Below are positions 29,815 through 50,889 of a DNA stretch of 64,000 bases, one piece after another. The notes under the pieces were generated by a model that did not search any database, was not told the DNA's origin, and was given only the letters and a program-made list of their open reading frames with translations. Made by a program: the position numbers and the translations under genes. Position 1 is the stretch's first letter; every line of letters begins with the position of its first letter. This DNA is from a virus (Duplodnaviria; Caudoviricetes): positions 1-64,000 of IMG/VR virus record IMGVR_UViG_3300028591_000007; one strand, 5' to 3'.

Positions 29815-30558
29815 TTAATAACTTGAACCTTTCCAGATCATATCAAGTTTCTTTGCAGTTTGTTTTCCAACAATACCATCAACTGCTAAATTATTATCTG
29901 CTTGAAAGTGTTTAATGGCACTATAAGTCTTTGAACCAAAGTCGCCATCAATCTTACCAAGTTCATAACCTTTCTTAGTTAACTGGTCCTGCAAGAGCTT
30001 AACATCAATACCTTTAGTACCTATTTTGAGTAATCTTGTAAGAACTGGTTTGTCATTCATTGGTGTATCATAATCGATCCAAGGAGCATAAGCCCAATAT
30101 GTCCAACCATGTTTATCTACAGATTCATATACACAATTTTCTTTACTTGATTTCATGTGTATGACCATGCCATTTGCGAGATAGATTCCAGTATGCTTTA
30201 TTGAGCTCGCAGATTTACCACGAAACAGTAGACATACAGAATGCAAAGGAAGTGTATCAATTGTACCTTTTCTATCATTTTTGACTTCATTGTAATACCC
30301 CTGAGCTGTTGTATCGTGACCAGAAAGAGCACAGTGCATTCCTGAACAATCGCTTCCTGGTTTACCATTACCTTCTTTAAGTTTCTTATCATAGTATGCT
30401 CTATCATAAGTTGCAGAATGATAATCTCTATAAGCCTTATCAATAGTTTCTTTTGTTATGATAGTTTCCGTATCAAAACCCCATATATAGACCGTATGAT
30501 CGTCTCTAACTTTAATATAAAAGTTCTTCGCTTCTTTTTGACTAAATTTGTTGCTCAT
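29815..30558 (-). CDS. Endolysin: NlpC/P60-type domain plus peptidoglycan-binding domain
   Basis: Y.WG...DCSG...HTGIY...IH; G.DVK.LQ..L...GY..G.IDG.FG..T..AIK.FQ....L.VDGIVG..T. Confidence 0.85.
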   Translation of the reverse strand: MSNKFSQKEAKNFYIKVRDDHTVYIWGFDTETIITKETIDKAYRDYHSATYDRAYYDKKLKEGNGKPGSDCSGMHCALSGHDTTAQGYYNEVKNDRKGTIDTLPLHSVCLLFRGKSASSIKHTGIYLANGMVIHMKSSKENCVYESVDKHGWTYWAYAPWIDYDTPMNDKPVLTRLLKIGTKGIDVKLLQDQLTKKGYELGKIDGDFGSKTYSAIKHFQADNNLAVDGIVGKQTAKKLDMIWKGSSY

Positions 30559-31178: not shown

Positions 31179-32138
31179 TTAAATTTTACATATAATGTTT
31201 GTATGTTCTATAGTTCCACTCTTATTAGATTTTGTAAATGCTTTTTTCTTTGTTAATGGTGTTAGTAAAATATTATTAGTAATATAAATATCTTTACAAA
31301 TACCTTCACCATTCTTAGCATCTACTTTTGCACCAGTTGTAGTATAGCTATAACTCTTTGAATAGATTCTAGCTATTTTAGGACAATCAAATTTATTCTC
31401 ATGTACTTCTACATTCTCCATTGATATAAATGATAAACAAGGATATACATCTTTATTATTTATCTTGCAATGGAATTCATTATTTAATATCTTTATATTT
31501 GTATGTTTCCTAGTATTATTCTGCTGAGCATGTTCTCCAATACAAACATAAGGATAATCTCTATAATCAGATTTTGTAAATAAACAATCACTTATAGTAA
31601 TATTGCTACAACAAGTTCTATCATAACATTTAGATTTACTATTAGAATCTTTCAATACAAATGCAGCATAACCAGCATAATCTAATTGTATACATTCCTT
31701 GTAAGCACTATCAGGATTTTTTAAATTATATCCTAAAAACTTACAATCCTTCACAGTAACATTCTTACATGAATTAAATTCAATACCATGGCAGAGAATA
31801 TCTTTAAAAGTAACATTTATTAAAGTTATATCGTGAGAATGGAAGAAGGTTATAAGATTATCATATGAATAACCTCCAAAACCTTCTAATGTTCCATTCT
31901 TTATCACAATATTACCATCACCATTATATCCAGTAGTATTATTATTCACTTTATTTAAGAATATTGATTGTATACTCTTTTTTCTTTGTAAGACTGCTCC
32001 ATTCAAATCAATTGTTGTATTAGAAGATACTATAAGTTGTTTAGTTATTTTGTAATTACCTGGACTAAATGTTATTGAACCTTTTTCATTTAATTTTGTT
32101 TGAATGGTTTTCATATCATCAGTTTTATTTACTAACAT
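31179..32138 (-). CDS. Right-handed parallel beta-helix (pectin-lyase-like) protein, possible depolymerase
   Basis: PG.YKI..L...SNT.I; repeated NITI.N/D C.F rungs. Confidence 0.75.
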   Translation of the reverse strand: MLVNKTDDMKTIQTKLNEKGSITFSPGNYKITKQLIVSSNTTIDLNGAVLQRKKSIQSIFLNKVNNNTTGYNGDGNIVIKNGTLEGFGGYSYDNLITFFHSHDITLINVTFKDILCHGIEFNSCKNVTVKDCKFLGYNLKNPDSAYKECIQLDYAGYAAFVLKDSNSKSKCYDRTCCSNITISDCLFTKSDYRDYPYVCIGEHAQQNNTRKHTNIKILNNEFHCKINNKDVYPCLSFISMENVEVHENKFDCPKIARIYSKSYSYTTTGAKVDAKNGEGICKDIYITNNILLTPLTKKKAFTKSNKSGTIEHTNIICKI

Positions 32139-32154: not shown

Positions 32155-32170
32155 TATACCTATTTTGATT
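32155..32170 (-). promoter_or_regulatory. Late-gene motif TCAAAAT(A/G)(G/A)GTA (also ~18085, 23420, 27045, 28140, 35542, 36265, 37158, 40762, 44283, 48175, 49678, 49730, 49782, 53996)
   Basis: Usually just upstream of RBSs of minus-strand late genes. Confidence 0.65.
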
Positions 32171-32185: not shown

Positions 32186-35100
32186 CTACGATACTCCAAT
32201 AACACAATCCATAACATTACTGCTTAACTCGTCATCATTATTATCAGTTGTAACTATACAGAAATAATAAGTACTATCGTAAGTTAATCCAGTAATATCT
32301 TTAGTTGTTTCTTTCTCGCTAAGAGTAGTAACAATATTATCAGTATCATCACAATTAGGATTCTCACCAATCTTACCATAAAGTTTAATTGATTTGAATG
32401 TTGTACTATCAGGTTGAACTAAAGTATAATCAATTGTTGCAGTGTTATCATTCACATCTATTGAGTTAATAACGGGAGACAATGAATTATTACCAGTTTC
32501 AACTTTAATAGTTTTAGTAAATGTGTAATACCTTATTGGATGCTCTGGGTCGCTATCATCTGCCGTATAATACGGAAAGAATCCATAGTAATAAGTCTTA
32601 CCTATTTTGATGTCTTCATCCTTATATCCTTTAGTCTTATATTTATCTCTTGTTTGAACAGATACAACTTTCTTACCGTCCCATCTGTGAAGCGGTGCAG
32701 AATCTTCTTTACGAACTATTGTTGTTCCTTCCCAATTACAAGGATAAGGTTCCCATGTATCAATATCTGGTGGATCAGTCCATTTAAGCTGGATGTAGGG
32801 TTTTGAACCTTGATCAAAAGTACCTTCAAATTTTGGATATTGACTTTCTTGTACCCAAAATCCAGGATATTGATATCTTGCAGTTGCATGCCAATGATCA
32901 GTTCCATATCTTGACATCGCTAATTCTGCATAATCTCCAAATTGTGCTTGAGAAATTACTGGATCAGTTATTCGTGTTCCTCCGTATTCTTCATATTTCC
33001 AAGAACCACCCCCATATGTGTGATAATTTGGATTATAATTAATTATATAAACTTCATAAGATTCTATATCTATTACTTTTGTTATAATTGTATTTTCAGT
33101 TTGACCAAGTATTTCTTCTTCTGTTGGATAATAATCTTCTTGTCCTAAAAAGTGTTCTGCATTATATGAAGAATAATCATAAATATTTTTACCAAATAAA
33201 TCTCTATAACCTTGCCATTCTTTTGTTCCAACATATGTCCAAGAACCATTAATATAAACATATAAAGGCCAACAAAAATCATTATCTGGATCATTTACAT
33301 CTTGATGTACTACTGGGTCATCATGCTGGTAATTTTTAACTTGTACATAATCACCTTCAATAATATCTATTTGTTGTCCACCAACAGTAATAGGATTAGT
33401 AGTATCACCATCTTTTATATAAGAGTCTGCAGGATATGAAGAAGTCATATATAAATGATTTTGACTTAAATCCAGAGTGCCCGCTGTCCCCTTAACAAAC
33501 ACAGCTTCACAATTCATTGGTTCGTCAAGTAATCTATAACCACAGTTACGCATATATTCAATTAAATCAAATGGCGTCATTAATTCAATATTATTTTGAT
33601 CGTTTGAACCAGATTTAGAACTAGCTTGATAATTTGTAAAGACTGGACTACGCATATCACCTTTTGCAGTATACTTATCCATCATCTTTTGTATACCTTC
33701 AAGTTCTCTCTCTAATATATATGTATAAAAGTGAGACTCTTCTCCAGTTATTTTATCAGTAAAATCAATTCTAATTCTATCACCAGTATCTCTTACAAGA
33801 TCTGCAAATGTAGTTAATTGACATGGTGTATATATTCTATTTCTTATATTATTATATCCTTGATTAAACAAAGCGTCAGGTGATACAGTTCCTTTTGCAA
33901 TATCTTTACCAAACAATTTATTTCTTATTACTTTATACTTGTTAATCATTTTCTTAATATCTTCATTATCAGATTTTGTAACAAGATAAGAACAAAACAT
34001 ATTATTAGTACAAGTAAATGTTTGTATTTGTGATTTCTGTTCAGCAGCATATTGTGCTTTATTCAACTTGTGATAATTTATTTCGGTATTATCATCTAAT
34101 ATAAATTTCATTACCAAAATATCTTGAACTTGATAATAGTCATGTTGAAAACCTTTAACTATTTCACTGTTATCAAATTTAGATTCTGGTATTTTATCAA
34201 TATTATCATCTTCATCAACGCTTGGTAATGGTTTGAATGATAATATACATCTTTCATAGTTATTATATTTACTTGGATGTTTTTCTTCCGGTGTTGGTTT
34301 GATTGTTTCTGGATCAACAAAGTAACCATCTTTGAATCTATCAGTTCTTATAATAGGATAACGTCCAGCTAATAATCCAATATCTTCTAAGAATTTACCA
34401 GCAGATAAAGCACCAGCACTCATAATTTTTGGATCTTGATAAAACTCTAATTCAAGTATATCCATATATCCATAACGTTCATATTCTTCTTCGCCTGGTT
34501 CGGATGGTATATACCTTTCATTTCCTTTTTTAAGAATATCTTCGTCGATCATTATTGGCATACCAAGACCAGTATAACCATTACCTTCTTCATAATCATC
34601 TCTACCATATTCATAGGGATTAGTTATTGTATTACCAACCTTCATTACAATTTTCTTTTCTTTTGTTTCTGGATCTATTTCTGGTTCATAAACAACTGGA
34701 TCATATGCTGCTAAATGTTCTATCAAATCAGTTAATGCTTCTTTAATAGTCCATTTTTTTTTAGGATCTCGTATCCAGTTCTCATCCCAATCATCTGGTT
34801 TCTTAACTTCTTCACCAGATTCATTTGTCATATCTTCATAATCTGATTGTAGTTTATTAATGCCTTCAAATAAATGTTTATACCAGTTGAATATATCCAT
34901 TTCTCTTAACCACATTAAGAAATCATATCCGGTTATCTGTCTTGAATAACCATCATCAACTAGTTTATCTTCTTCAATTTTAAACATTCCAAGATAGATT
35001 AATGTAGAAGAATCACCATTGAAATACATATATGCTTCAACACAGGCATTACCAAGTAATTCACCAACAATCTTTCTTTCAGTTCCATTTGGGTCTGTTT

Positions 35101-35518
35101 CTACAAATTCATATTTTTGAAGATTTGGTATAACGGGTTCCCAGTATCCTTTTTCTTCATTATATTCTTTTTCATTCCTTATAGTAAACTGTATTTGTGC
35201 AGCATTACAAGATGAGAATGTTAAATTGTTATCAGAATTTAATGAATTAGAATATTTAAACTTTTCTTTAACAATATCTTTATTTGTAATAACCCATTCT
35301 ACTGGTTTATAAATGTAATTTCCATGACTATCTTTTGCAGGTATTGGTTTCTTATTTGGTTCATCACCAATCCATTCCCATTCGGGCATTTTTGATGTTA
35401 TTATTGGTTCGGAACCAGGTACTTTTTCAACTTCAGTAGCATGAGGGACTATTAAGATGTCTCGATGCACGCCCTTACCAAATTCATCTCTTATATCACT
35501 TGTATAATCCCAACGCAT
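32186..35518 (-). CDS. Tail-tip/host-specificity-like protein, paralog 3 (MRWDY family), with FN3-like C-terminal domains
   Basis: High identity to 37167-40727 and 40756-44259; LKW.DP...YYYGFFPY and GL..DSTYYFC motifs; tail-module position. Confidence 0.7.
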   Translation of the reverse strand: MRWDYTSDIRDEFGKGVHRDILIVPHATEVEKVPGSEPIITSKMPEWEWIGDEPNKKPIPAKDSHGNYIYKPVEWVITNKDIVKEKFKYSNSLNSDNNLTFSSCNAAQIQFTIRNEKEYNEEKGYWEPVIPNLQKYEFVETDPNGTERKIVGELLGNACVEAYMYFNGDSSTLIYLGMFKIEEDKLVDDGYSRQITGYDFLMWLREMDIFNWYKHLFEGINKLQSDYEDMTNESGEEVKKPDDWDENWIRDPKKKWTIKEALTDLIEHLAAYDPVVYEPEIDPETKEKKIVMKVGNTITNPYEYGRDDYEEGNGYTGLGMPIMIDEDILKKGNERYIPSEPGEEEYERYGYMDILELEFYQDPKIMSAGALSAGKFLEDIGLLAGRYPIIRTDRFKDGYFVDPETIKPTPEEKHPSKYNNYERCILSFKPLPSVDEDDNIDKIPESKFDNSEIVKGFQHDYYQVQDILVMKFILDDNTEINYHKLNKAQYAAEQKSQIQTFTCTNNMFCSYLVTKSDNEDIKKMINKYKVIRNKLFGKDIAKGTVSPDALFNQGYNNIRNRIYTPCQLTTFADLVRDTGDRIRIDFTDKITGEESHFYTYILERELEGIQKMMDKYTAKGDMRSPVFTNYQASSKSGSNDQNNIELMTPFDLIEYMRNCGYRLLDEPMNCEAVFVKGTAGTLDLSQNHLYMTSSYPADSYIKDGDTTNPITVGGQQIDIIEGDYVQVKNYQHDDPVVHQDVNDPDNDFCWPLYVYINGSWTYVGTKEWQGYRDLFGKNIYDYSSYNAEHFLGQEDYYPTEEEILGQTENTIITKVIDIESYEVYIINYNPNYHTYGGGSWKYEEYGGTRITDPVISQAQFGDYAELAMSRYGTDHWHATARYQYPGFWVQESQYPKFEGTFDQGSKPYIQLKWTDPPDIDTWEPYPCNWEGTTIVRKEDSAPLHRWDGKKVVSVQTRDKYKTKGYKDEDIKIGKTYYYGFFPYYTADDSDPEHPIRYYTFTKTIKVETGNNSLSPVINSIDVNDNTATIDYTLVQPDSTTFKSIKLYGKIGENPNCDDTDNIVTTLSEKETTKDITGLTYDSTYYFCIVTTDNNDDELSSNVMDCVIGVS

Positions 35519-35556
35519 GTAATATTTGTCTCCTTTCTACCTATTTTGAATTATTC

Positions 35557-36246
35557 CTATGTATTTTCTCGTAGAAATGTTATCCTAGCATATCCATTAC
35601 CAATTTTAGGCTTGCCACTTACAGGAGTTTCACTTGCTTCATTTACTGATTCTGTCTTTGTCGATTCAGCACTTGAAGTGGAAATATTATAACCAACCAT
35701 CTTTTTATTAGATAATAGAGAATTACCAATATATCCTGAGCCTGCTCCACCACCAGTATTTTTATCAACTAATGAACCATTTATGTATAAGTTTTCATAA
35801 TTTGCAGTTGTATAAAATATGTATGGCGGAAGACTTTCATTAGAATTAGAATCATATGAATAATTTTTTCCTTCATAATTTCTAGTTGATAAGTTCCAAG
35901 CTACAGATTGAGCTTCTATACCATCACTGATATGAAACTTTGAACCATATAATACATTACTTCCAGAAAGATTTATTGATTGGTCATATGCTATACAATT
36001 GTCAACACCACTTACAAGATCATTACGAAGATATAAATCAGTTACATCATCTATATGATTTAGCCTAAACAAATAACCATAAGCAGTACTATAAGAATTC
36101 ATTAATAGAGTATTACAATTAGGAACAAGTTCTTGACCCATTGCCATTAATTCATCAAGTGTCAAACTAAGTGTTTCGCCTGTCCATGAACTTCTTAAAG
36201 TAACAACTGTGCTTCCAGGTGGTTGTAATAAACCTTTAACTCCCAT
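35557..36246 (-). CDS. Unique N-domain plus the C-terminal third of a glycine-rich domain
   Basis: GGGAGSGYIGNSLLSNKKM...GNGYARIT. Confidence 0.75.
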   Translation of the reverse strand: MGVKGLLQPPGSTVVTLRSSWTGETLSLTLDELMAMGQELVPNCNTLLMNSYSTAYGYLFRLNHIDDVTDLYLRNDLVSGVDNCIAYDQSINLSGSNVLYGSKFHISDGIEAQSVAWNLSTRNYEGKNYSYDSNSNESLPPYIFYTTANYENLYINGSLVDKNTGGGAGSGYIGNSLLSNKKMVGYNISTSSAESTKTESVNEASETPVSGKPKIGNGYARITFLRENT

Positions 36247-36273
36247 TTATATTTCCTTTCTACTCATTTTGAA

Positions 36274-37029
36274 TTATACAACAATACCTTTATACCCACC
36301 ATACAGACCGCCACCTCCACCAGATACATTAGAACTAGATTCACCTTGTCCAAAAGCATATCCAGTAGTCTGATCTGCAGAATTAGTACTATTTCCGCTT
36401 ATACCGCCAGCATCCGCTCCTGTGTATTCCGTTTCACCAATAAGCATACCACCACCGCCTCCACCTGAGACAATCAATATATCTGAGAGATTGTTGGAAA
36501 GTGATGATAACTGTCCTGTGACTTTGGCTATATGTGTTGCTCCACCACCATTGGATATGTAAGTTTGGACAGGAGGTATATAGCTCTTTATTGCAAGATA
36601 TGTATTACGTTGGTCTTCTGGTCGACCTTCTGAAACCATAGGATAGATACGATATTGACTTGGGTATGAAACTGAATGATAACATGAATAAAACATACCG
36701 ATTTCATTTGTTTCATCTACAGCAAAACCAAAACCAATAAAATCCATATCATTATATCCACCAGAACTTGCACCACCGCAAACTTGATTATTATAATATA
36801 ATTGAAAACCATATTGGTTCGGATAAGTGGATGCTAATGCATCTATTTTCATTATACCATTGTCATAGATGGTGTGCCACTCGTTATCTACTGTTATATA
36901 CCCGATAAGATTAGTACCTTCAATATATAAATCATTATTGTCACTGACTGGATAATTATAATAATCGGTACTTAATGATTTACTAGTAACAAAATTATCA
37001 AGTGTTAAATCTACAACTTCCCAAGCCAC
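36274..37029 (-). CDS. Unique N-domain plus the middle third of a glycine-rich domain
   Basis: GGGATHIA...LSSL...ILIVSGGGGG...FGQG...GGGGGLYGG. Confidence 0.75.
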   Translation of the reverse strand: MAWEVVDLTLDNFVTSKSLSTDYYNYPVSDNNDLYIEGTNLIGYITVDNEWHTIYDNGIMKIDALASTYPNQYGFQLYYNNQVCGGASSGGYNDMDFIGFGFAVDETNEIGMFYSCYHSVSYPSQYRIYPMVSEGRPEDQRNTYLAIKSYIPPVQTYISNGGGATHIAKVTGQLSSLSNNLSDILIVSGGGGGGMLIGETEYTGADAGGISGNSTNSADQTTGYAFGQGESSSNVSGGGGGLYGGYKGIVV

Positions 37030-37166
37030 ACTCTCACCCTTCTTTCCATAAAATATCTATAATCTTACGCCTTACACCAATTAAGGTATTATTCCCAATT
37101 GTAAGCGACCCACTCCATCACGTCTACAGCCTTTCCGCCACCGAGTTGTTTACTACCTATTTTGAA

Positions 37167-40100
37167 TTATTTGACGGTTAAAACTATATTCTTTACATGA
37201 TATATACCGTCGCCACCTTCTATACCAATATAATCTACATATGGTACTTCATTATTATTTATAAATTCTTCAGCATTATGCCAATTCTCATCTGAAGGAT
37301 ACTTACATCCTAATGATGTCATATTCCAATCATTATTACTTCCAATATATGCTATCCAGAATCCAACTCTGTCATAACCACCGCCCCAGTGATACTGATT
37401 TGTTACAGCATAGTCAGCAGTAATCTTTATAATATTTTTCTTTATTCTCTTGATTGGAATCCAGAATACACTATCTGATCTATTAGCTCCTCTACCAGCT
37501 CGTTTTAATTCACCATTTTCTTTAATAGTAGTATATAACCATTGATTACCAATAAGAAGATTCCATTCTGTTAAGAAATAATCTTGATATAAGTAAGTGG
37601 GGACATAACCATGCTCATTTCCATAAACAGCATCTGTCTTATATTTTGTCATATCCCAATTATCAACTAATAGACTTGAATTAAAATCATTAGTAAAGAA
37701 ATCTATGTTATCAGTACCATCCCATACATTACTTGATATTGAATTGATCTCAACTTTAATAACTTTAGTGTATCTAAAGAAATTAATGTCATGTCCATCT
37801 TCTTCTCTATTCTTGTAATATGGGAAGAAACCATAATAATAAGTTTTGCCGAATTCAATATCTTCATCATTGTATGCAATATCTTTATAAGCATTCTTAT
37901 TACTTAAAGTAGTTCTAACAATCTCTGTACCATCCCACATATGTTTTGGTGCTGCATTTTCTTTACGAACTACTACAGTTCCTTGCCAATCAGCTGGAGT
38001 AGGTTTCCATGAATCAATATCATCAGGGTCTTCCCATTGCAATTCTACATGATCTTTAGTATTTTGTGATACTGGATTTTCATGTAAATCAGGATAACCA
38101 CTCGTACAATCAACCCATACTCCAGGATATTGATATGTAGCCGCTATTTGATTCCAATGTTCTTCTTCTTGAGATGTTAGTCTTAAATTAGGTAATACAT
38201 CGTCTGTTAAATGCCCATACGAATTACCATCTATACATATAATATCACCGAGTTCAATATTTATAGTTTGTCCATTTACTTTTAAAACATTTGTTGTATC
38301 GCCATATTTTAAATCATTAGGCTCAAATATCCAATGTTTTGTTGGATCTTCTTTCCATTCTTCAGGATAGCCGCAATCATTAATTGGACTATTTTCATCA
38401 TATGGATCTTTACCAAAAAATTCCCATTTACCATTTACTGTATAAAAAGCAAATTCTGGATAATCACTATAAGGATATGTATTCCAACCCATATATGCTA
38501 TTGGATTTCCACTTGATGTTATATCATGAGGTTCCCATTCTTGTAACTCTTCATTCCAATATTCGCATTTAAGACCATGAGTACTTGGATCATCTTGTAC
38601 TGGTGTTTCGCCATCCCATGTTTCATCTGGATCATAAATAGCTCCATAGAAATTTAAAGGAGAAACTTCGCCACCTTCACTTCCTTCAACAAATATTGCA
38701 CTAGCTTCTATTGGTTCGTCAAGTAATCTAATACCAACATTTCTTAAATAAGATACTAACGAACCTGGTGTTACTGCAATATCTTCAGATCCATCACTTA
38801 ATTTATTACTTATACTATTACGATAACCTAACATTAATACATTTATATCAAAACCACTTTGATAAGTTGTACCAGCTTGATAGTTACTAAATGTTGGATT
38901 AGTTAAAGCGCCTTTAGCTTCATAGGTATCCATCATTTTCTGTACACCTTCAAGTGTTCTTTCAAGTATAAATGTATAGAATTGAGTCTTTTCACCAGTT
39001 ACCTTATCTTCAAAATTAATAAGTATTCTATCACCAACATCTCTTACTGGATCACCATATGTTGTAAGTTTGTATGGAACATAAGATCTGTTTTTGATAT
39101 TATTATAGCCTTGATAGAACAATGCATCACTAGTCATATTATTATTCTTCTTCTCTTTACCAAATAGTTTTGTTTTTATTTTCTTATACTCTTCTATATT
39201 TTTTGCAATGTCTTTATTATCACTTTCTTCAACAAGATAAGAACAAAACATATTATTGTTAAAAGAGAATTCTTGTAATGCATGGTCATCAGCATCTTTT
39301 TGTTGTTGTTTGGTTAATCTTTTATATTCAACATTATTACCATCATCCATACCTATTTTGATTATTAAGACATCCTTTACTGTGAATAAAGAATGTTCAA
39401 ACCCTTTAGCAATATCATTATTTGAGAATTGCTGTTCAGGTTGTAATTTAGTTTGTCCGCTTGAATAAGCATCATCTTTACTTGAAGGTAATGGTCTAAA
39501 TGATAATACACATCTTTCATAGTTATTGTATTTATTTGGATGTGGTTCTTTCTCAGTTGGAACTATTGTACTTGGGTCTATATAGTTACCATCTTCTATC
39601 TTGTCAGGTCTTATAAATGGATAACGTCCAGCTAATAAACCTATATCTTCCAAGAATTTACCCATTGATAATGAACCAGACTTTATTATTTTTGGATCTT
39701 CCATAAATTCTAGTTCAAGTATTTTCATATATCCATAACGTTCGTATTCATCTTCACCTGGTTCGCTTGGAATATATGGTTCTGTACCTTTTGTCATAAT
39801 GTCTGTATCTAACATTACTGGCATACCAAGACCTGAATAACCGCAACCATCACCGTAATCTCTTGCATAGACTGAAGGATTTGTAGTAGTTGCACCAACT
39901 AATGCTTTCTGTACATCACTATCCCATACAATCATATCAAAAGATGCTAAGTGATCAATAAGATCTTGTAAAGCATCTTTTACTGTCCATTTTGATTTTT
40001 TCTTTCTAATCCAATTTTCTTTTGAATCATACTTGTCAGGTTTCTTTTCTTCTTCACCTGTTTTGTTTGTATAATCCAAATAATCATTATCAAGTTTATT

Positions 40101-40727
40101 TATACCTGTAAAGAGATGTTTATACCAGTTGAATATATCCATATCTCGGAAGGTTGCCATAAAGTCATAAGCTGTAATTTCTCTATTATAACCATTATCA
40201 ACAGCTTTGTCTTCTTCAACTCTAAACATTCCTAAACACAATAATGTACTTGAATCACCATTAATATATGTATATACTTTTATTATATAATTTCCATTTA
40301 ACTCACCTAATAACAAATTACCATTATTATCATATTTGTAATAGTATTGTAGATTAGGTATATCCAATTCCCAAGTATCAGTATCTGGGTTGTATTCTTT
40401 ATTATTCCTTATTGTAAATTGTACCATTGCTGAAGATGCAGAAGTAAATGATATATTATCAGATGGATTTAAACTAAATGAATATTTAAACTTCTCTTTA
40501 ACAATATCCTTGTTTGTTATTGTCCAGTCAACATCTGTATAAATATAGTTTCCATGACTATCTGTTTTAGGTGTTCCATCATCATTAAACTCTGGTACTT
40601 TTGAAGTTACTATCGGATCATTTCCAGGTACTTTTATTACATTAGTAGCATGAGGGACTATTAATATATCTCTATGAGGTCCCTTGCTGAATTCATCTCT
40701 GTATTCATCATTGTAATCCCATCTCAT
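37167..40727 (-). CDS. Tail-tip/host-specificity-like protein, paralog 2, with a unique C-terminal domain
   Basis: MRWDY family. Confidence 0.7.
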   Translation of the reverse strand: MRWDYNDEYRDEFSKGPHRDILIVPHATNVIKVPGNDPIVTSKVPEFNDDGTPKTDSHGNYIYTDVDWTITNKDIVKEKFKYSFSLNPSDNISFTSASSAMVQFTIRNNKEYNPDTDTWELDIPNLQYYYKYDNNGNLLLGELNGNYIIKVYTYINGDSSTLLCLGMFRVEEDKAVDNGYNREITAYDFMATFRDMDIFNWYKHLFTGINKLDNDYLDYTNKTGEEEKKPDKYDSKENWIRKKKSKWTVKDALQDLIDHLASFDMIVWDSDVQKALVGATTTNPSVYARDYGDGCGYSGLGMPVMLDTDIMTKGTEPYIPSEPGEDEYERYGYMKILELEFMEDPKIIKSGSLSMGKFLEDIGLLAGRYPFIRPDKIEDGNYIDPSTIVPTEKEPHPNKYNNYERCVLSFRPLPSSKDDAYSSGQTKLQPEQQFSNNDIAKGFEHSLFTVKDVLIIKIGMDDGNNVEYKRLTKQQQKDADDHALQEFSFNNNMFCSYLVEESDNKDIAKNIEEYKKIKTKLFGKEKKNNNMTSDALFYQGYNNIKNRSYVPYKLTTYGDPVRDVGDRILINFEDKVTGEKTQFYTFILERTLEGVQKMMDTYEAKGALTNPTFSNYQAGTTYQSGFDINVLMLGYRNSISNKLSDGSEDIAVTPGSLVSYLRNVGIRLLDEPIEASAIFVEGSEGGEVSPLNFYGAIYDPDETWDGETPVQDDPSTHGLKCEYWNEELQEWEPHDITSSGNPIAYMGWNTYPYSDYPEFAFYTVNGKWEFFGKDPYDENSPINDCGYPEEWKEDPTKHWIFEPNDLKYGDTTNVLKVNGQTINIELGDIICIDGNSYGHLTDDVLPNLRLTSQEEEHWNQIAATYQYPGVWVDCTSGYPDLHENPVSQNTKDHVELQWEDPDDIDSWKPTPADWQGTVVVRKENAAPKHMWDGTEIVRTTLSNKNAYKDIAYNDEDIEFGKTYYYGFFPYYKNREEDGHDINFFRYTKVIKVEINSISSNVWDGTDNIDFFTNDFNSSLLVDNWDMTKYKTDAVYGNEHGYVPTYLYQDYFLTEWNLLIGNQWLYTTIKENGELKRAGRGANRSDSVFWIPIKRIKKNIIKITADYAVTNQYHWGGGYDRVGFWIAYIGSNNDWNMTSLGCKYPSDENWHNAEEFINNNEVPYVDYIGIEGGDGIYHVKNIVLTVK

Positions 40728-40755
40728 ATTTTAATAGCCCCTCCTTTCTATTTAT

Positions 40756-43700
40756 CTACTCATTTTGATTTGTTGTACCGCCACCATTATATCCATCTTG
40801 TCCACCGACATTAACATAAAGTATATCACCTTGTTGTAATAATACTTCACCAACTGAATAAGAACCATAACCACCTCTTGCAGTATTAGTTCCATCAGTA
40901 GCATTACCACCTTGTGCACCCCATGTTTCAAGTTTATATATACCAGTCTTAGGTGCTATGAATGTTTGTATTGCTCCAGTGTAATCGAAATCTTGTTTCT
41001 TAAATTCTCCAATTGCTATACTTTCACTATTACTACTTATAGGTGTATCATTATTATCTATACAATGTATTGTAAAGTAATAAGTTGTACCATAACTTAA
41101 TCCAGTAACACCAATACTATCCTCATCAGTATCAATATCAAGAATTATATCATCTGTTTCATCACAACTTGGATAAGTATCTATCTTACCATAAAGTTTA
41201 ACACTCTTGTAACTAACATCTTCTGGTATTTCAATTGTATAATTAATAATTACAGTAGTCTCTTCTGCAATTATAGAATCAATTGAAGGTGCATAGATAG
41301 TAACACCAGTTTCAACTTTAATAGTTTTAGTAAATGTATAAAAGTTGATTGGATGGTCTGGGTCAGCTATTTTTGTATAGTATGGAAAGAATCCATAGTA
41401 ATATACTTTACCAGTCTCAATATCTTTATCTTTATATGCAGTATTTTTATATTTATCTCTTGTAGTAATACGAACAACTTTTTCACCATCCCATCGATGT
41501 AAAGGCGGTGAGTTTTCTTTACGAACTATTACAGTTCCTTCCCATGTTGCAGGTGTTGGTTTCCAATCAGTAATATCAGGTGGATCGGACCATTTAAGTT
41601 GGACACATTTTGTTACTTCAACTTTAATTTCAGTTTGATATCCATCTATACCCGAAGTGTTTGGATAACAATCAACCCATACACCTGGATATACATACCA
41701 AGCACCTTCTCCACTCCAATTAGGATCGTCATTAAAATTAGTATCTTGTAAATAAAAGTAATCGCCTAATTGTACAGTATAATCAACACCATTTATTTGT
41801 ATATTAGTAATAGTATCACCCGGTTTAAAACTCGGTGTTATAATTGTATTATAGTCATCGATTATCCTATTATAACCAGTCACATGCCATTTTCCATTTA
41901 CATCATAAAAATATGATTCCTCAAATACATCAATTGGAGGACCACTTGTTACATATTCCTCATTTTCTTCACTTGATAATAACCCATGATTACTTGTATC
42001 GCCTTCGGTTGGATAATTACCATCCCATGTTTGAACCATATCTTCAAGATCTTCATCATAATATTCAGTATAACATTTTGAATAACTACAAGTAGTTTTT
42101 TCACTTCCTGCACCTTTAACAAATTTAGCTTCACAACCAGTTGGTTCGTCTAAAAGCCTAATACCAAAATTACGCCAATATTGTACTAAATCAGAAGGTG
42201 ACATGCCTTTAGCTTCACTACCATCTGAACCACCAGAACTTGGTATTGCATTATAACCAAATGATTGAGCAGAGTAATTAGATCCACTTTGATAAGTAGA
42301 ACCATTTTGATAATTTGTAAAAACAGCACTAGAACTTTCTCCTTTAGCTTCATAAGTATCCATCATTTTCTGAATACCTTCCATGCTACGTTCTAGTATA
42401 TATGTATAGAAACTAGTATGCTCTCCAGTAATCTTATTTGTGAAATTTATCTTTATCCTATCACCAACATCTCTTACAGGATCTGCATATGTTGTAAGTT
42501 TATATGGAACATAAGATCTATACTTCATATTATAATAACCTTGAGCAAATAATGCTTTACTGCTCATGTTACCATTTTTATTAACAGTTTCCTTACCAAA
42601 TAACTTTTTTCTTATAGCTTTATATTCATCTAATTTCTTTTTAATATCTTCCTTATCAGACTTTGTAACAAGATACGTTGCAAACATATTATCACTAAAT
42701 GTAAATGTTTGAACGTTACCTGTTTCAGCTAATTTATGTTGTGATTTAGTTAATCTTTTATATTCTAATTCTGTTTTATCATCCATTTTGATTTTTATAA
42801 TCTCAATGTCATCGACTGTATAATTCTCATGTTGAAAGTCTTTAGCTATGTCATTATTATCAAAATTAGATTCAGGTATATTTATTAACTTTTTATCATC
42901 TTTACTTGTTGGTAATGGTTTAAATGATAATATACATCTTTCATAATTGTTGTAACGATTATCATATTTATGTTCTTCTCCAGAAGGTATATCTGCCGGA
43001 TCTTCAAAGTCATGCTCGTCAAACTTATCAGCTCGAATGAACGGATACCTTCCAGCTAATCTACCAATATCTTCTAAGAACTTGCCCATGCTTAAAGTTT
43101 TTCTTGACATTATGTTTGGATTTGCACAAAATTCCAAGTCAAGTATATCCATATAACCATAACATTCAAAAGCATCTTCTGCAGGTTCATCAGGTATTTT
43201 ATATTCTTTTTTAGTACTCGTTTCTGGATCTGGTAATATATCTGGATCAATCGTTACAGGCATACCTAAACCACTATAACCAGCACCTTCTTTATAGTCT
43301 CGTCCGTAATCATTCGGATTTGTTATAGTGTTACCTAATTTTGCAACTTTCTTTTTTACTTTCTTACCAGTTTGCGGATCTTTAACTGTTTCTTCTTCAA
43401 ACACAATTGGATCATAAGAACAGAAGTTTTTAATTAGATCTTCTAGAGCTTCTCTTATTGTCCATCTACCGTTTCTATCTGGAAATAATTCAGTTGATGG
43501 TTTTCTTATCCAGTTAATATCAGCATTATAATCATCTGGATTTGTTTCTTTTTTAGTAGATTTACTAGTAAAATCCATAAAGTCATCATCAAGTTTATTT
43601 ATACCAGTAAAGAGATGCTCATACCAATAATATATGTCACAATCTCTAAAGAAAGCCATAAAGTCATAAGCAGTTATTTGTCTTGAATAACCATTGTCTG

Positions 43701-44259
43701 TAACTTTATCTTCTTCTACTTGAAACATTCCTAAACATATTAAAGTATCTGAATCACCATTAATATATGTGTATACTTTGATAATACAATTACCTGATAA
43801 TTCACCGGTTATCTTTCTTTCTGTTCCATTAGGATCTGTTTCTGTGAATTCATAGTTTTGTAAATTAGGTATTACAGGTTCCCAATATCCTTTTTCTTCA
43901 TTAAATTCTTTCTCATTCCTTATAGTAAATTGTACCATTGCTGCATTACAAGCAGAGAATGATAAGTTATCATCTGAGTTAATAGAATAAGAATATTTAA
44001 ACTTTTCTTTAACAATATCTTTATTTGTAATAACCCATGGCACATCTTGCAATACTAAATTACCACCGGAATCTCGTTCTGGTTGTGGTTGTTTTTCTCC
44101 TTCATCTCCAACCCATTCCCATTCTGGTACTTTATATGTTATTAATGGATCATGACCAGATACTTTTTCAACTTTAGTAGCATGGGGAACTATTAAGATG
44201 TCTCTATGAGGTCCCGTGCTAAATAAATCTCTATATTCATCAGGATAGTCCCATCTCAT
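40756..44259 (-). CDS. Tail-tip/host-specificity-like protein, paralog 1, ending in the N-terminal third of a glycine-rich domain
   Basis: DFDYTG..QTF.AP..G.YKLETWGAQGG...GGYG.YS.G...L..G..LY.NVGG..GYNGGG then stop. Confidence 0.75.
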   Translation of the reverse strand: MRWDYPDEYRDLFSTGPHRDILIVPHATKVEKVSGHDPLITYKVPEWEWVGDEGEKQPQPERDSGGNLVLQDVPWVITNKDIVKEKFKYSYSINSDDNLSFSACNAAMVQFTIRNEKEFNEEKGYWEPVIPNLQNYEFTETDPNGTERKITGELSGNCIIKVYTYINGDSDTLICLGMFQVEEDKVTDNGYSRQITAYDFMAFFRDCDIYYWYEHLFTGINKLDDDFMDFTSKSTKKETNPDDYNADINWIRKPSTELFPDRNGRWTIREALEDLIKNFCSYDPIVFEEETVKDPQTGKKVKKKVAKLGNTITNPNDYGRDYKEGAGYSGLGMPVTIDPDILPDPETSTKKEYKIPDEPAEDAFECYGYMDILDLEFCANPNIMSRKTLSMGKFLEDIGRLAGRYPFIRADKFDEHDFEDPADIPSGEEHKYDNRYNNYERCILSFKPLPTSKDDKKLINIPESNFDNNDIAKDFQHENYTVDDIEIIKIKMDDKTELEYKRLTKSQHKLAETGNVQTFTFSDNMFATYLVTKSDKEDIKKKLDEYKAIRKKLFGKETVNKNGNMSSKALFAQGYYNMKYRSYVPYKLTTYADPVRDVGDRIKINFTNKITGEHTSFYTYILERSMEGIQKMMDTYEAKGESSSAVFTNYQNGSTYQSGSNYSAQSFGYNAIPSSGGSDGSEAKGMSPSDLVQYWRNFGIRLLDEPTGCEAKFVKGAGSEKTTCSYSKCYTEYYDEDLEDMVQTWDGNYPTEGDTSNHGLLSSEENEEYVTSGPPIDVFEESYFYDVNGKWHVTGYNRIIDDYNTIITPSFKPGDTITNIQINGVDYTVQLGDYFYLQDTNFNDDPNWSGEGAWYVYPGVWVDCYPNTSGIDGYQTEIKVEVTKCVQLKWSDPPDITDWKPTPATWEGTVIVRKENSPPLHRWDGEKVVRITTRDKYKNTAYKDKDIETGKVYYYGFFPYYTKIADPDHPINFYTFTKTIKVETGVTIYAPSIDSIIAEETTVIINYTIEIPEDVSYKSVKLYGKIDTYPSCDETDDIILDIDTDEDSIGVTGLSYGTTYYFTIHCIDNNDTPISSNSESIAIGEFKKQDFDYTGAIQTFIAPKTGIYKLETWGAQGGNATDGTNTARGGYGSYSVGEVLLQQGDILYVNVGGQDGYNGGGTTNQNE

Positions 44260-44295
44260 ATATAGAATGCCCCTTTCTACTTATTTTGAAAAAAT

Positions 44296-49869: not shown

Positions 49870-50889
49870 TTAGGGCGTTACAGTTCCGTTCAGGATGTCA
49901 ATAAGATCCTGTACTTCTGTGCTTGTAAGTGACTCTGCATCAGCAGCTTCGATCAGATCAATAATTGTTACATCATCAACTTCTGCTGCAACCCAAGGAC
50001 CTGCTACAGAATGAGCTGTAGTAAACTTGTACAGAACATCCTGATATGTAACAATATCACCAACTGCATACACACCAGCAACAGGATCGAACTCAGGAGC
50101 AAGATCATTTCTTACTAAATCAATCCTTCCGCCAAGTGCTGCATCAGCTGCCTGAAGAGTCTTAACAACAGTGTCAAGATTGATCTTAGTAACCTCTGAA
50201 GCAACCCAAGCACCAGGTGTATCATGAGCTGTAGTAAATTTGTAGAGTTCATCATTGTAAATTACAAGATCACCTACTGCATATGTTCCACTTGTTGCAT
50301 CGAATGCAGGAGCGATATCTGTCTGAGTCTTATCAATTCTTGCATTAGCACCAGCGATTCCTGCTGTAGCAGCTGCTGCAACTTCGTTGATGATCTCTTC
50401 TACAGTTACATCCTCAACCTTTGAAGAATCCCAAGCACCTGCTACATCCTGAGCTGTGGTAAATCTGTAAAGGAAGTTGTTATGTGTAACAATATCACCA
50501 ACTTCATATGTCTCTGTCTCAAGGAACTTGTCAGCGATCATAGCTGCTACATTACCAATTTCTGTATAGATAGCAGCTACATCAATGAATCCAGCAAGTA
50601 CATCAAACTTAAGATCAGGTGTAGAAGCGGTTCCAACATCAGCAATTGCTACATTGGTTCCAGCAGGATAAACATTACCGGCACCTTCTACGAATCTTGA
50701 GTCAGTTGTGAACTCTTCAGTAAGATTGTAGGTCCAACCTACCATACTTGCCTGAAGTGTTGCAGGAAGTCCATTAAAAGCTACTGAACCGTGGAACACA
50801 TATGCTCCATCAACCGCGTCAAATCTGAGTTTAATCGCTTCCATTAATGCGGTAGCGTTACTCATGTCAACAAAATGTTTCTTTGCCAT
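49870..50889 (-). CDS. Structural protein with three CBM5/12-like repeats
   Basis: Y.VGD.V.(H/Y)...LY.FTTA...G.W x3. Confidence 0.7.
   Translation of the reverse strand: MAKKHFVDMSNATALMEAIKLRFDAVDGAYVFHGSVAFNGLPATLQASMVGWTYNLTEEFTTDSRFVEGAGNVYPAGTNVAIADVGTASTPDLKFDVLAGFIDVAAIYTEIGNVAAMIADKFLETETYEVGDIVTHNNFLYRFTTAQDVAGAWDSSKVEDVTVEEIINEVAAAATAGIAGANARIDKTQTDIAPAFDATSGTYAVGDLVIYNDELYKFTTAHDTPGAWVASEVTKINLDTVVKTLQAADAALGGRIDLVRNDLAPEFDPVAGVYAVGDIVTYQDVLYKFTTAHSVAGPWVAAEVDDVTIIDLIEAADAESLTSTEVQDLIDILNGTVTP

Follow-up and report, generated by a model that had tools for sequence, protein, structure and literature searches.

Glycine-rich domains with a TNF-like (tumour necrosis factor-like) core are known from the fibre tip of phage Pam3 (gp24), related lattices are known from the gp38 adhesins, and the same fold occurs in ALK/LTK. 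Pam3 gp24, a myocyanophage tail fibre characterized by cryo-electron microscopy, carries an ALK-ectodomain-like, TNF-like and glycine-rich tip domain on a single chain, with six hairpin loops, each consisting of two conserved glycine motifs plus a distal, hypervariable tip, which was proposed as the receptor site (PMC9608196). The gp38 adhesin of T2/S16-type phages is a polyglycine-II sandwich with hypervariable loops (PDB 6F45; PMC9608196). Here we describe a tail locus within 64,000 nucleotides of phage DNA (hereafter the window, positions 1-64,000 of the complete 135.7-kb virus record IMG/VR IMGVR_UViG_3300028591_000007, which has terminal repeats), in which one domain of this kind is distributed in three pieces over three genes. 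We consider it likely that the domain is assembled from these separate chains and thereby docks exchangeable cargo subunits onto a tail-tip protein. Judged by sequence comparison, the division of the domain over two or three gene products as a joint between tail tip and cargo would be new, since none was found among cultured phages or in the literature, where our search returned no description of a glycine-rich domain split over gene products in phage tails.

As in Pam3 gp24, the strands of a beta-sandwich may here run on into glycine-rich hairpins that stand distally on a host-recognition protein of the phage; unlike gp24, which is one chain with short variable tips, the locus would use two or three chains and place whole domains of 110-240 amino acids at the inferred tips. 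A sequence search of the PDB gave no match to a Pam3 entry, and ALK chains were the only matches. The likeness to the ALK/LTK extracellular domain (PF12810; e.g., PDB 7N00 and 7LS0-type structures) lies in parts 1 and 3, which match the two ends of the profile, and the pieces are 43-60% identical to unsplit bacterial relatives, in which their order is p1-p2-p3. In contrast to the locus described here, ALK/LTK and these bacterial relatives are always single chains, the bacterial ones forming tandem arrays on InlB-repeat or prepilin-type proteins, and they have neither such cargo inserts nor a role in a virion. With gp38 the locus has in common a separate small protein with a glycine-rich lattice at the fibre tip, where host range is set by segments between glycine motifs, but gp38 is a complete domain that joins gp37 via a distinct N-terminal attachment domain and does not complete a fold held jointly with the fibre. 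Phage recognition modules are known to be attached through dedicated adaptor domains or trimeric coiled stems. In chaperone-usher pili, donor-strand complementation, by which a subunit supplies the missing strand of its neighbour, gives very stable non-covalent joints of subunits that are encoded separately; these pili offer an analogy only, as their fold is different, a single strand is donated instead of a third or more of a domain, and they do not belong to phages.

The three paralogous tail-tip genes are here named A, B and C, the genes bearing part 2 and part 3 are named g251 and g229, and the domains that are not glycine-rich are called cargo. The genes follow each other on the minus strand in the order A (44259-40756), B (40727-37167), g251 (37029-36274), g229 (36246-35557) and C (35518-32186), with the following features.

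Gene A, 40756..44259, minus strand: Tal-like tail-tip protein of 1167 amino acids, one of three MRWDY paralogs, with part 1, the putative socket piece, at its C-terminus.
Part 1, 40777..40995, minus strand: residues 1089-1161 of A; the chain ends 6 residues past the GYNGGG run.
Gene B, 37167..40727, minus strand: paralog of A with 1186 amino acids, situated between parts 1 and 2 and without a glycine-rich piece.
C-terminal ~176 amino acids of gene B, about 37170-37700, minus strand: directly fused cargo domain of family 1 (family-1 profile, expectation value (E) 8.5e-33).
Spacer between B and g251, 37030..37166, minus strand: non-coding; has the gene-start motif at its beginning and bounds the swappable cassette on the upstream side.
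N-terminal cargo domain of g251, 36553..37029, minus strand: 159 amino acids, swapped for an unrelated domain in close relatives.
Part 2, 36286..36552, minus strand: residues 160-248 of g251; the chain ends 3 residues later (local p2 profile, E 3e-47).
N-terminal cargo domain of g229, 35752..36246, minus strand: 165 amino acids.
Part 3, 35569..35751, minus strand: residues 166-226 of g229, predicted to hold the last beta-strand of the TNF-like sandwich (local p3 profile, E 4e-41).
Gene C, 32186..35518, minus strand: third paralog with 1110 amino acids, which stops exactly at the point where part 1 starts in A and has neither a glycine-rich piece nor cargo.

Our profile comparisons placed part 1 (last 78 residues of A) on positions 6-60 of the 243 positions of the Pfam family PF12810 (ALK_LTK_GRD; E 6e-10, 39.9 bits with a cut-off of 24.5), that is, on about a quarter of the profile, and part 3 (last 71 residues of g229) on positions 188-243 (E 3e-4), with 21.3 bits and thus slightly below the same cut-off. 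The end of g251, part 2, gave no direct Pfam match, which is probably an effect of the composition filter of HMMER. Local hidden Markov models (HMMs) of the three pieces, termed p1, p2 and p3, were built from the window and five relatives, and the p2 model matched unsplit domains in their middle. On P0068, an unsplit bacterial protein, PF12810 spans residues 280-514 (profile positions 7-242), and p1, p2 and p3 match residues 264-327, 360-448 and 457-515, in that order. Because the piece models and PF12810 fall in order on this protein, the three pieces are, at the level of sequence, a consecutive, non-overlapping and in-order cover of one PF12810 domain. Each piece has exactly one copy in the whole 135.7-kb genome, and the domain is not found in one polypeptide, but in three open reading frames with their own starts and with gene B between parts 1 and 2. 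A preliminary description of this DNA had proposed three reading frames ending in intact pieces that lie in order without overlap, with unique domains of ~160 amino acids before parts 2 and 3; our analysis bears this out, with all three frames at the given coordinates on the minus strand, PF12810 ranges of 6-60, middle and 188-243, consecutive model ranges on P0068, preceding domains of 159 and 165 amino acids and, as described below, purifying selection on the pieces.

A search with part 3 recovered five IMG/VR phage loci (L001-L005), and altogether eight related loci were compared (L001-L005, L009, L011 and L012, the upstream gene of L011 being cut off at the contig start). The break after part 1, behind a GY[NG]GGG run, is found in 8 of the 8 loci. 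In L001-L005, part 1 is borne by the Tal-like protein encoded directly behind the tape-measure gene and a small Dit-like gene, parts 2 and 3 are on later genes, and the Tal-like chain either ends within 9 residues of part 1 or runs on into an extra domain of 106-242 amino acids. The homologue of A follows the tape-measure and Dit-like genes in L012 as well, and in all these loci a Tal-like protein has part 1 as its C-terminus; in the window, 12 kb separate the tape-measure gene from the A/B/C paralogs downstream. The second break, which parts part 2 from part 3, occurs in the window, L001, L004 and L009, but not in L002, L003 and L005, where one protein holds both parts. In L003 this is a bare protein of 174 amino acids, with 75% identity to part 2 of g251, and in L004 part 3 is a separate open reading frame of 69 amino acids.

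An exhaustive HMMER search with the 174-amino-acid protein as query yielded 1053 clusters (50% identity) at E up to 1e-3, and 110 of them at E up to 1e-30. Among 283 proteins sampled from this search and from a search with part 1 and sorted by the local models, part 1 alone was present in 50 (Tal-like proteins), part 2 alone in 55, part 3 alone in 15 and both of the latter in 74, and about 85 were cellular proteins with tandem unsplit p1-p2-p3 domains (InlB-repeat or prepilin-type). Roughly 135 short proteins had parts at 60-94% identity, and not one of them contained part 1; nor was part 1 joined to part 2 in any protein with pieces at this phage-type identity, and the break after it was always immediately behind the GY[NG]GGG run. 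The sequences thus document a split that is shared by well over a hundred phage protein clusters of this kinship and is neither decay nor peculiar to one genome, its presence in relatives being a check that the preliminary description had named.

The same comparisons bear on the possibility that one polypeptide or one gene is made from the pieces prior to use, whether in the DNA (programmed rearrangement), in the RNA (splicing), in translation (ribosomal bypass or read-through) or in the protein (protein splicing), which we regard as highly improbable. The genes g251 and g229 do lie only 27 nucleotides apart in the same frame, and two short-sided joints in the source metagenome link part 1 to part 2 or 3 (36550 to 40801 and 40834 to 35722); the sides of these joints, however, are only 21 and 31 letters long at 85% likeness, which fits unsplit tandem domains of other organisms, and one contig from the probable source run covers the whole stretch unchanged. 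All genes with pieces have start codons and ribosome-binding sites of their own, the intervals between the genes contain several stops in all frames, and an entire 3.5-kb gene separates parts 1 and 2. The breaks use both TAG and TAA, the frames of A, B and g251 differ, and the window has no tRNA gene and so no suppressor tRNA. No intron was found, and between positions 30000 and 46000 no Rfam family was matched at E up to 1, save two rows at chance level. There are no intein ends either, the junctions (GGG / SNGGG and KG / TGGG) lacking a Cys/Ser start and a His-Asn-Cys/Ser/Thr end. Finally, the break is kept across eight loci with very different intervening content.

Along with their recurrence, the pieces are under purifying selection. 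Pairwise ratios of nonsynonymous to synonymous substitution (dN/dS) among six phages lay at 0.09-0.27 (part 1), 0.06-0.14 (part 2) and 0.06-0.24 (part 3), or 0.05-0.27 overall, at dS values from 0.5 to above 2, which places synonymous sites near saturation, and at a nucleotide identity of the pieces of only 65-85%. Low dN/dS at such dS shows that the protein sequence itself is conserved and not mere DNA homology, and ratios below 1, foreseen for pieces that are not decaying, were thus obtained throughout.

The numbers of the pieces are matched as well. Six-frame scans gave parts 1, 2 and 3 in the proportion 1:1:1 in seven loci (the window, L001-L005 and L009). In L012, a tip protein of 1811 amino acids contains two part-1 pieces and is followed by exactly two genes with parts 2 and 3 (2:2:2). 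A canonical part-1 piece and a canonical downstream set stand beside a divergent part-1 piece and a divergent set; the divergence shows as a shorter loop in part 1 and as changed motifs in the other two parts. This sequence correspondence suggests two specific (orthogonal) socket-plug pairs. A second two-socket protein, P0153, is encoded at the end of its contig. Directly downstream of the two-flavour set, L012 (8001-18490) has two glycosyltransferase genes and an aminotransferase gene.

To describe the cargo, 210 segments that are not glycine-rich were cut from the sorted proteins and clustered into families. The 58 members of family 0 are found at every position: 12 follow part 1, 25 precede part 2, 2 lie inside it and 2 follow it, 3 lie between parts 2 and 3, 5 precede part 3 and 9 follow it. 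The 25 members of family 1 are spread over the sites in a similar way. In P0037, P0044, P0058, P0063 and P0064, a domain that elsewhere precedes part 3 is an internal insert of 159-188 amino acids between parts 2 and 3, and since cargo occurs in this way within a single chain, these two parts must come together in space however the chains are connected. P0064 (L011, 342-2474) is a single chain with the order p2a-cargo-p2b-cargo-p3-cargo and three family-0 domains. One and the same site may thus be bridged by a short loop, carry an inserted domain or be the point where the chain breaks, as would be expected from the sequences if the glycine-rich pieces keep one fold and the sites are exits on its surface. 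All sites lie between successive glycine runs (GYNGGG / NGGGA, SGGGGGG...AGGISG and GGLYGGYKG / GGGAGSG), and by analogy with Pam3 gp24 this pattern should place them at the tips of glycine hairpins. A different arrangement was noted in P0041, where parts 2 and 3 are followed by a whole unsplit p1-p2-p3 domain in a cargo-like position.

The nature of the cargo was approached through profiles and fold models. A Pfam search of 81 cargo-bearing relatives gave nothing but PF12810. Family 0 was modelled confidently as a beta-sandwich (predicted local distance difference test, pLDDT, above 90), for which Foldseek returned no match at E up to 0.001 and the best VIA Z was 4.5; lectin-like rows appeared only at Z of about 3.3, and a lectin assignment on this ground was rejected. 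The family-1 domain at the C-terminus of gene B, modelled with AlphaFold2 at pLDDT 71.7, is predicted to be a jelly roll resembling carbohydrate-binding modules (CBMs), with matches to CBM70 (4d0q, E 8e-5) and CBM29 (TM score up to 0.57). The N-terminal domains of g251 and g229 are members of small families. That of g251 has no Pfam or PHROG match, a homologue search with it found only itself, and among the sorted proteins it has one distant relative, P0081. That of g229 has close relatives in P0269 (96%) and P0270 (82%) and distant ones at other sites in P0049 (after part 3) and P0095 (before part 2).

Exchange of cargo between close relatives was directly visible. Locus L009, from a different sample, has the same order A'-B'-263 amino acids-232 amino acids-C'. 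Its 232-residue protein shares 82% identity with g229, and its 263-residue protein has only part 2 in common with g251 (76%), the N-terminal domains being unrelated; the spacer before its gene is about 95% identical to the window over 112 nucleotides (window 37040-37152). The contig X2, from a third study, parallels the window as far as 36549, shows 536 foreign letters where the window has 501, and rejoins it at 37051, and the contig X3 keeps the N-terminal domain of g251 at about 96% identity. As the matches of X2 and L009 resume at those edges, the exchange unit is the cargo domain alone, from the spacer to the first codon of part 2. The suggestion that the subunits are exchangeable receives direct support from these replacements, which in L009 and X2 are confined to the N-terminal domain of g251. 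The spacer (37040-37152) gave no sign of a structured RNA, with no Rfam family and a fold z-score of -1.4. A second variable slot was noted in gene B, the central part of which (37900-38700) differs from that of B' in L009 (5100-6000), both ends being about 90% identical; X2 and X3 likewise lose likeness in the centre of gene B.

Such cassettes raise the question whether the pieces ever reassemble. They might be linkers for recombination or remnants of an ancestral domain, with the proteins reaching the virion in another way, and in favour of this, homologous recombination would favour conserved flanks around variable cassettes, and the cassette edge of X2 and L009 lies exactly at the first codon of part 2. 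We nevertheless find this explanation quite improbable: the conservation is at the protein level (dN/dS 0.05-0.27 with dS 0.5 to above 2), a nucleotide identity of 65-85% is poor for recombination, the counts match (1:1:1 and 2:2:2) together with the flavours, and the single-chain insert forms place the pieces in one fold. Moreover, part 1, which has only about a quarter of the profile positions, is unlikely to fold by itself.

Reassembly was also modelled with three chains, A residues 1080-1167 and full-length g251 and g229, using a self-made alignment per chain in three runs. The interface score ipSAE for the A fragment was 0.91 in 3 of 3 runs, the partners reached pLDDT of at least 87, and the runs agreed on at least 97% of contacts. 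When the A fragment was replaced by unrelated proteins, the scores were 0.00 and 0.00, and replacement of g251 gave the best control, 0.47. For comparison, 58 of 80 solved complexes attain this mark, as do 2 of 110 mismatched pairs, a reference that is only rough here because of our own alignments and the three chains. Confident contacts in the model are limited to the glycine-rich pieces (A 1086-1164, g251 155-247 and g229 165-228): strands of g229 (218-223) and g251 (165-168) are predicted to pair with A 1108-1113 and A 1148-1151, respectively, and the glycine run 191-192 of g251 to pack on A 1130. Part 2 of the 276-residue L004 protein, modelled alone, stayed under a pLDDT of 50, and its cargo domain exceeded 90. 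Thus the three C-termini co-fold in the models, as the preliminary description had proposed (ipSAE 0.91 and, for the best of three controls, 0.47). What the model conveys is compatibility of the pieces with one fold, not binding.

Taken with the tiling, the dN/dS values and the spread of the split, the co-fold model supports the proposal that the domain reassembles in trans as a connector for subunits on the tail tip. In such an assembly, the TNF-like/glycine-rich (polyglycine-II) domain would form only once three polypeptides meet. The C-terminus of A would give the first beta-strands and the first glycine runs and thus act as a socket, g251 would give the central glycine runs, and g229 would add the closing beta-strands along with the final glycine run. 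Folding across chains would fix g251 and g229, with their N-terminal cargo of ~160 amino acids, to the distal end of A, probably with three of each per trimeric tip. The breaks would lie between ascending and descending glycine runs, at the expected hairpin tips, which correspond to the proposed receptor-binding positions in single-chain phage relatives. Given breaks at these presumed tips, the cargo would be displayed where host contact is expected, and it would be exchangeable in the form of gene cassettes. The cargo is probably host-binding and of adhesin type, as suggested by its position, its variability and the CBM-like model of family 1.

The main alternative concerns the role of the cargo and not the assembly. 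The pieces might reassemble, yet the glycine-rich domain itself would bind the receptor, and the ~160-residue domains would be accessory, i.e., releasable assembly helpers, shields or decoration. There is a precedent in Pam3, where the glycine-rich tips themselves were proposed as receptor binders, and where the neighbouring gene product, a non-conserved beta-sandwich, chaperones the TNF-like/glycine-rich domain and is thought to leave before maturation (PMC9608196); family 0, too, is without a clear lectin or CBM match. We consider an accessory role unlikely, however, because g251 and g229 are modelled to contribute strands and glycine runs that are integral to the domain, so that their departure would unfold it, and because the glycine-rich pieces are the most conserved segments (70-94%), whereas determinants of host range are expected to vary. 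Variation and swapping between near-identical phages are instead located in the cargo, and family-1 cargo, which models as a CBM-like jelly roll, is also fused to the tip paralog B.

Several observations weigh against docking of host-binding cargo by a shared domain. The high score of the complex may come in part from the model's memory of single-chain ALK-type folds; because such structures have been solved, the good result may stem from likeness, and with g251 replaced, part 1 against g229 alone still scored 0.47. Gene B stands between A and g251, which makes coupling by co-translation not obvious for the first break. The putative placement of the breaks at hairpin tips is read from the sequence pattern. 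ESM Atlas models of the N-terminal domains of g251 and g229 are poor (pLDDT 0.55 and 0.35) and gave no usable look-alike, and the adhesin role is deduced from position, variability and one CBM-like model of a family other than the g251 and g229 cargo. Furthermore, a search of the GenBank phages in INPHARED gave no DNA or protein match to the region, to g251 or to a protein with parts 2 and 3, and no cultured carrier was found.

The preliminary description had also reported a TCAAAAT motif after each break. A copy is indeed present behind every one of these genes, but the motif is not peculiar to the breaks. The consensus TCAAAATRRGTAG (TCAAAAT(R)(R)GTAG) has 13 copies in the window, with 0.68 expected, all on the minus (coding) strand between 11543 and 54003, usually 13-45 nucleotides before start codons of unrelated genes and with AAAGGAG in between. 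Its position behind the breaks results simply from every break being the end of a gene, and the copy at the end of A overlaps the last codons of this gene. In terms of its distribution in the sequence, TCAAAATRRGTAG is a phage-wide gene-start signal and does not mark the breaks; it probably acts as a late promoter or as a signal for processing or for translation initiation. The copies near the locus found in the 13-copy search are as follows.

36260..36272, minus strand: gene-start motif.
44277-44289, minus strand: gene-start motif.
40756-40768, minus strand: gene-start motif.
37153-37165, minus strand: gene-start motif.
35537-35549, minus strand: gene-start motif.
32156-32168, minus strand: gene-start motif.

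Among the paralogs, A and B share 52% identity over residues 1-983, and A and C share 58% over residues 1-718 and 51% over 829-1084. Their C-termini differ, with part 1 in A, fused family-1 CBM-like cargo in B and neither in C, and the same order is kept in L009; A, B and C are candidates for alternative tips or for a mixed trimer. In PHROGs, A, B and C match only families of unknown function, and NCBIfam gave no match for A, g251, g229 or a tip protein of L002. A query of IMG/VR with g251 was likewise without a match, and the 134 pattern matches in GTDB genomes included no relative. All carriers found come from sheep, goat or bovine gut metagenomes. Four contigs of 151-163 nucleotides from a sheep-gut metatranscriptome library (X24) are identical to stretches of gene B within window positions 39312-40742, which may reflect carry-over of DNA; none of them lies on g251 or g229, and they are uninformative on the transcription of these two genes either way. 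Two further genes for host recognition belong to the same module, both on the minus strand: one encodes a protein of 339 amino acids with three CBM5/12 repeats (window 49870-50889), and the other a protein of 319 amino acids that matches tail-spike PHROGs (window 31179-32138, E 4e-40).

Beyond this locus, complementation of a fold may be a general way of attaching receptor modules in a large clade of uncultured ruminant-gut phages, with sockets and plugs co-evolving into orthogonal pairs, an extension that we put forward tentatively and as a genuine possibility. A tip protein would then have one or more sockets, and plugs made of parts 2 and 3 would bring cargo to every glycine-hairpin tip, while orthogonal flavours, as in L012, would let one virion mount several defined sets of modules.

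The attachment and exchange of host-recognition modules set the host range of phages. A joint built from a shared domain would explain why the pieces are conserved (70-94%) amid replaced surroundings, why cargo is found at about six positions, why cassettes are swapped cleanly and why the counts of the pieces match. If confirmed, it would represent a rare natural domain that folds only from three gene products, and a natural, compact and possibly orthogonal plug-and-socket for the display of binding domains on phage tails. For the phages of the rumen, a large set of so far unannotated proteins (1053 clusters at E up to 1e-3) would thereby gain one functional frame.

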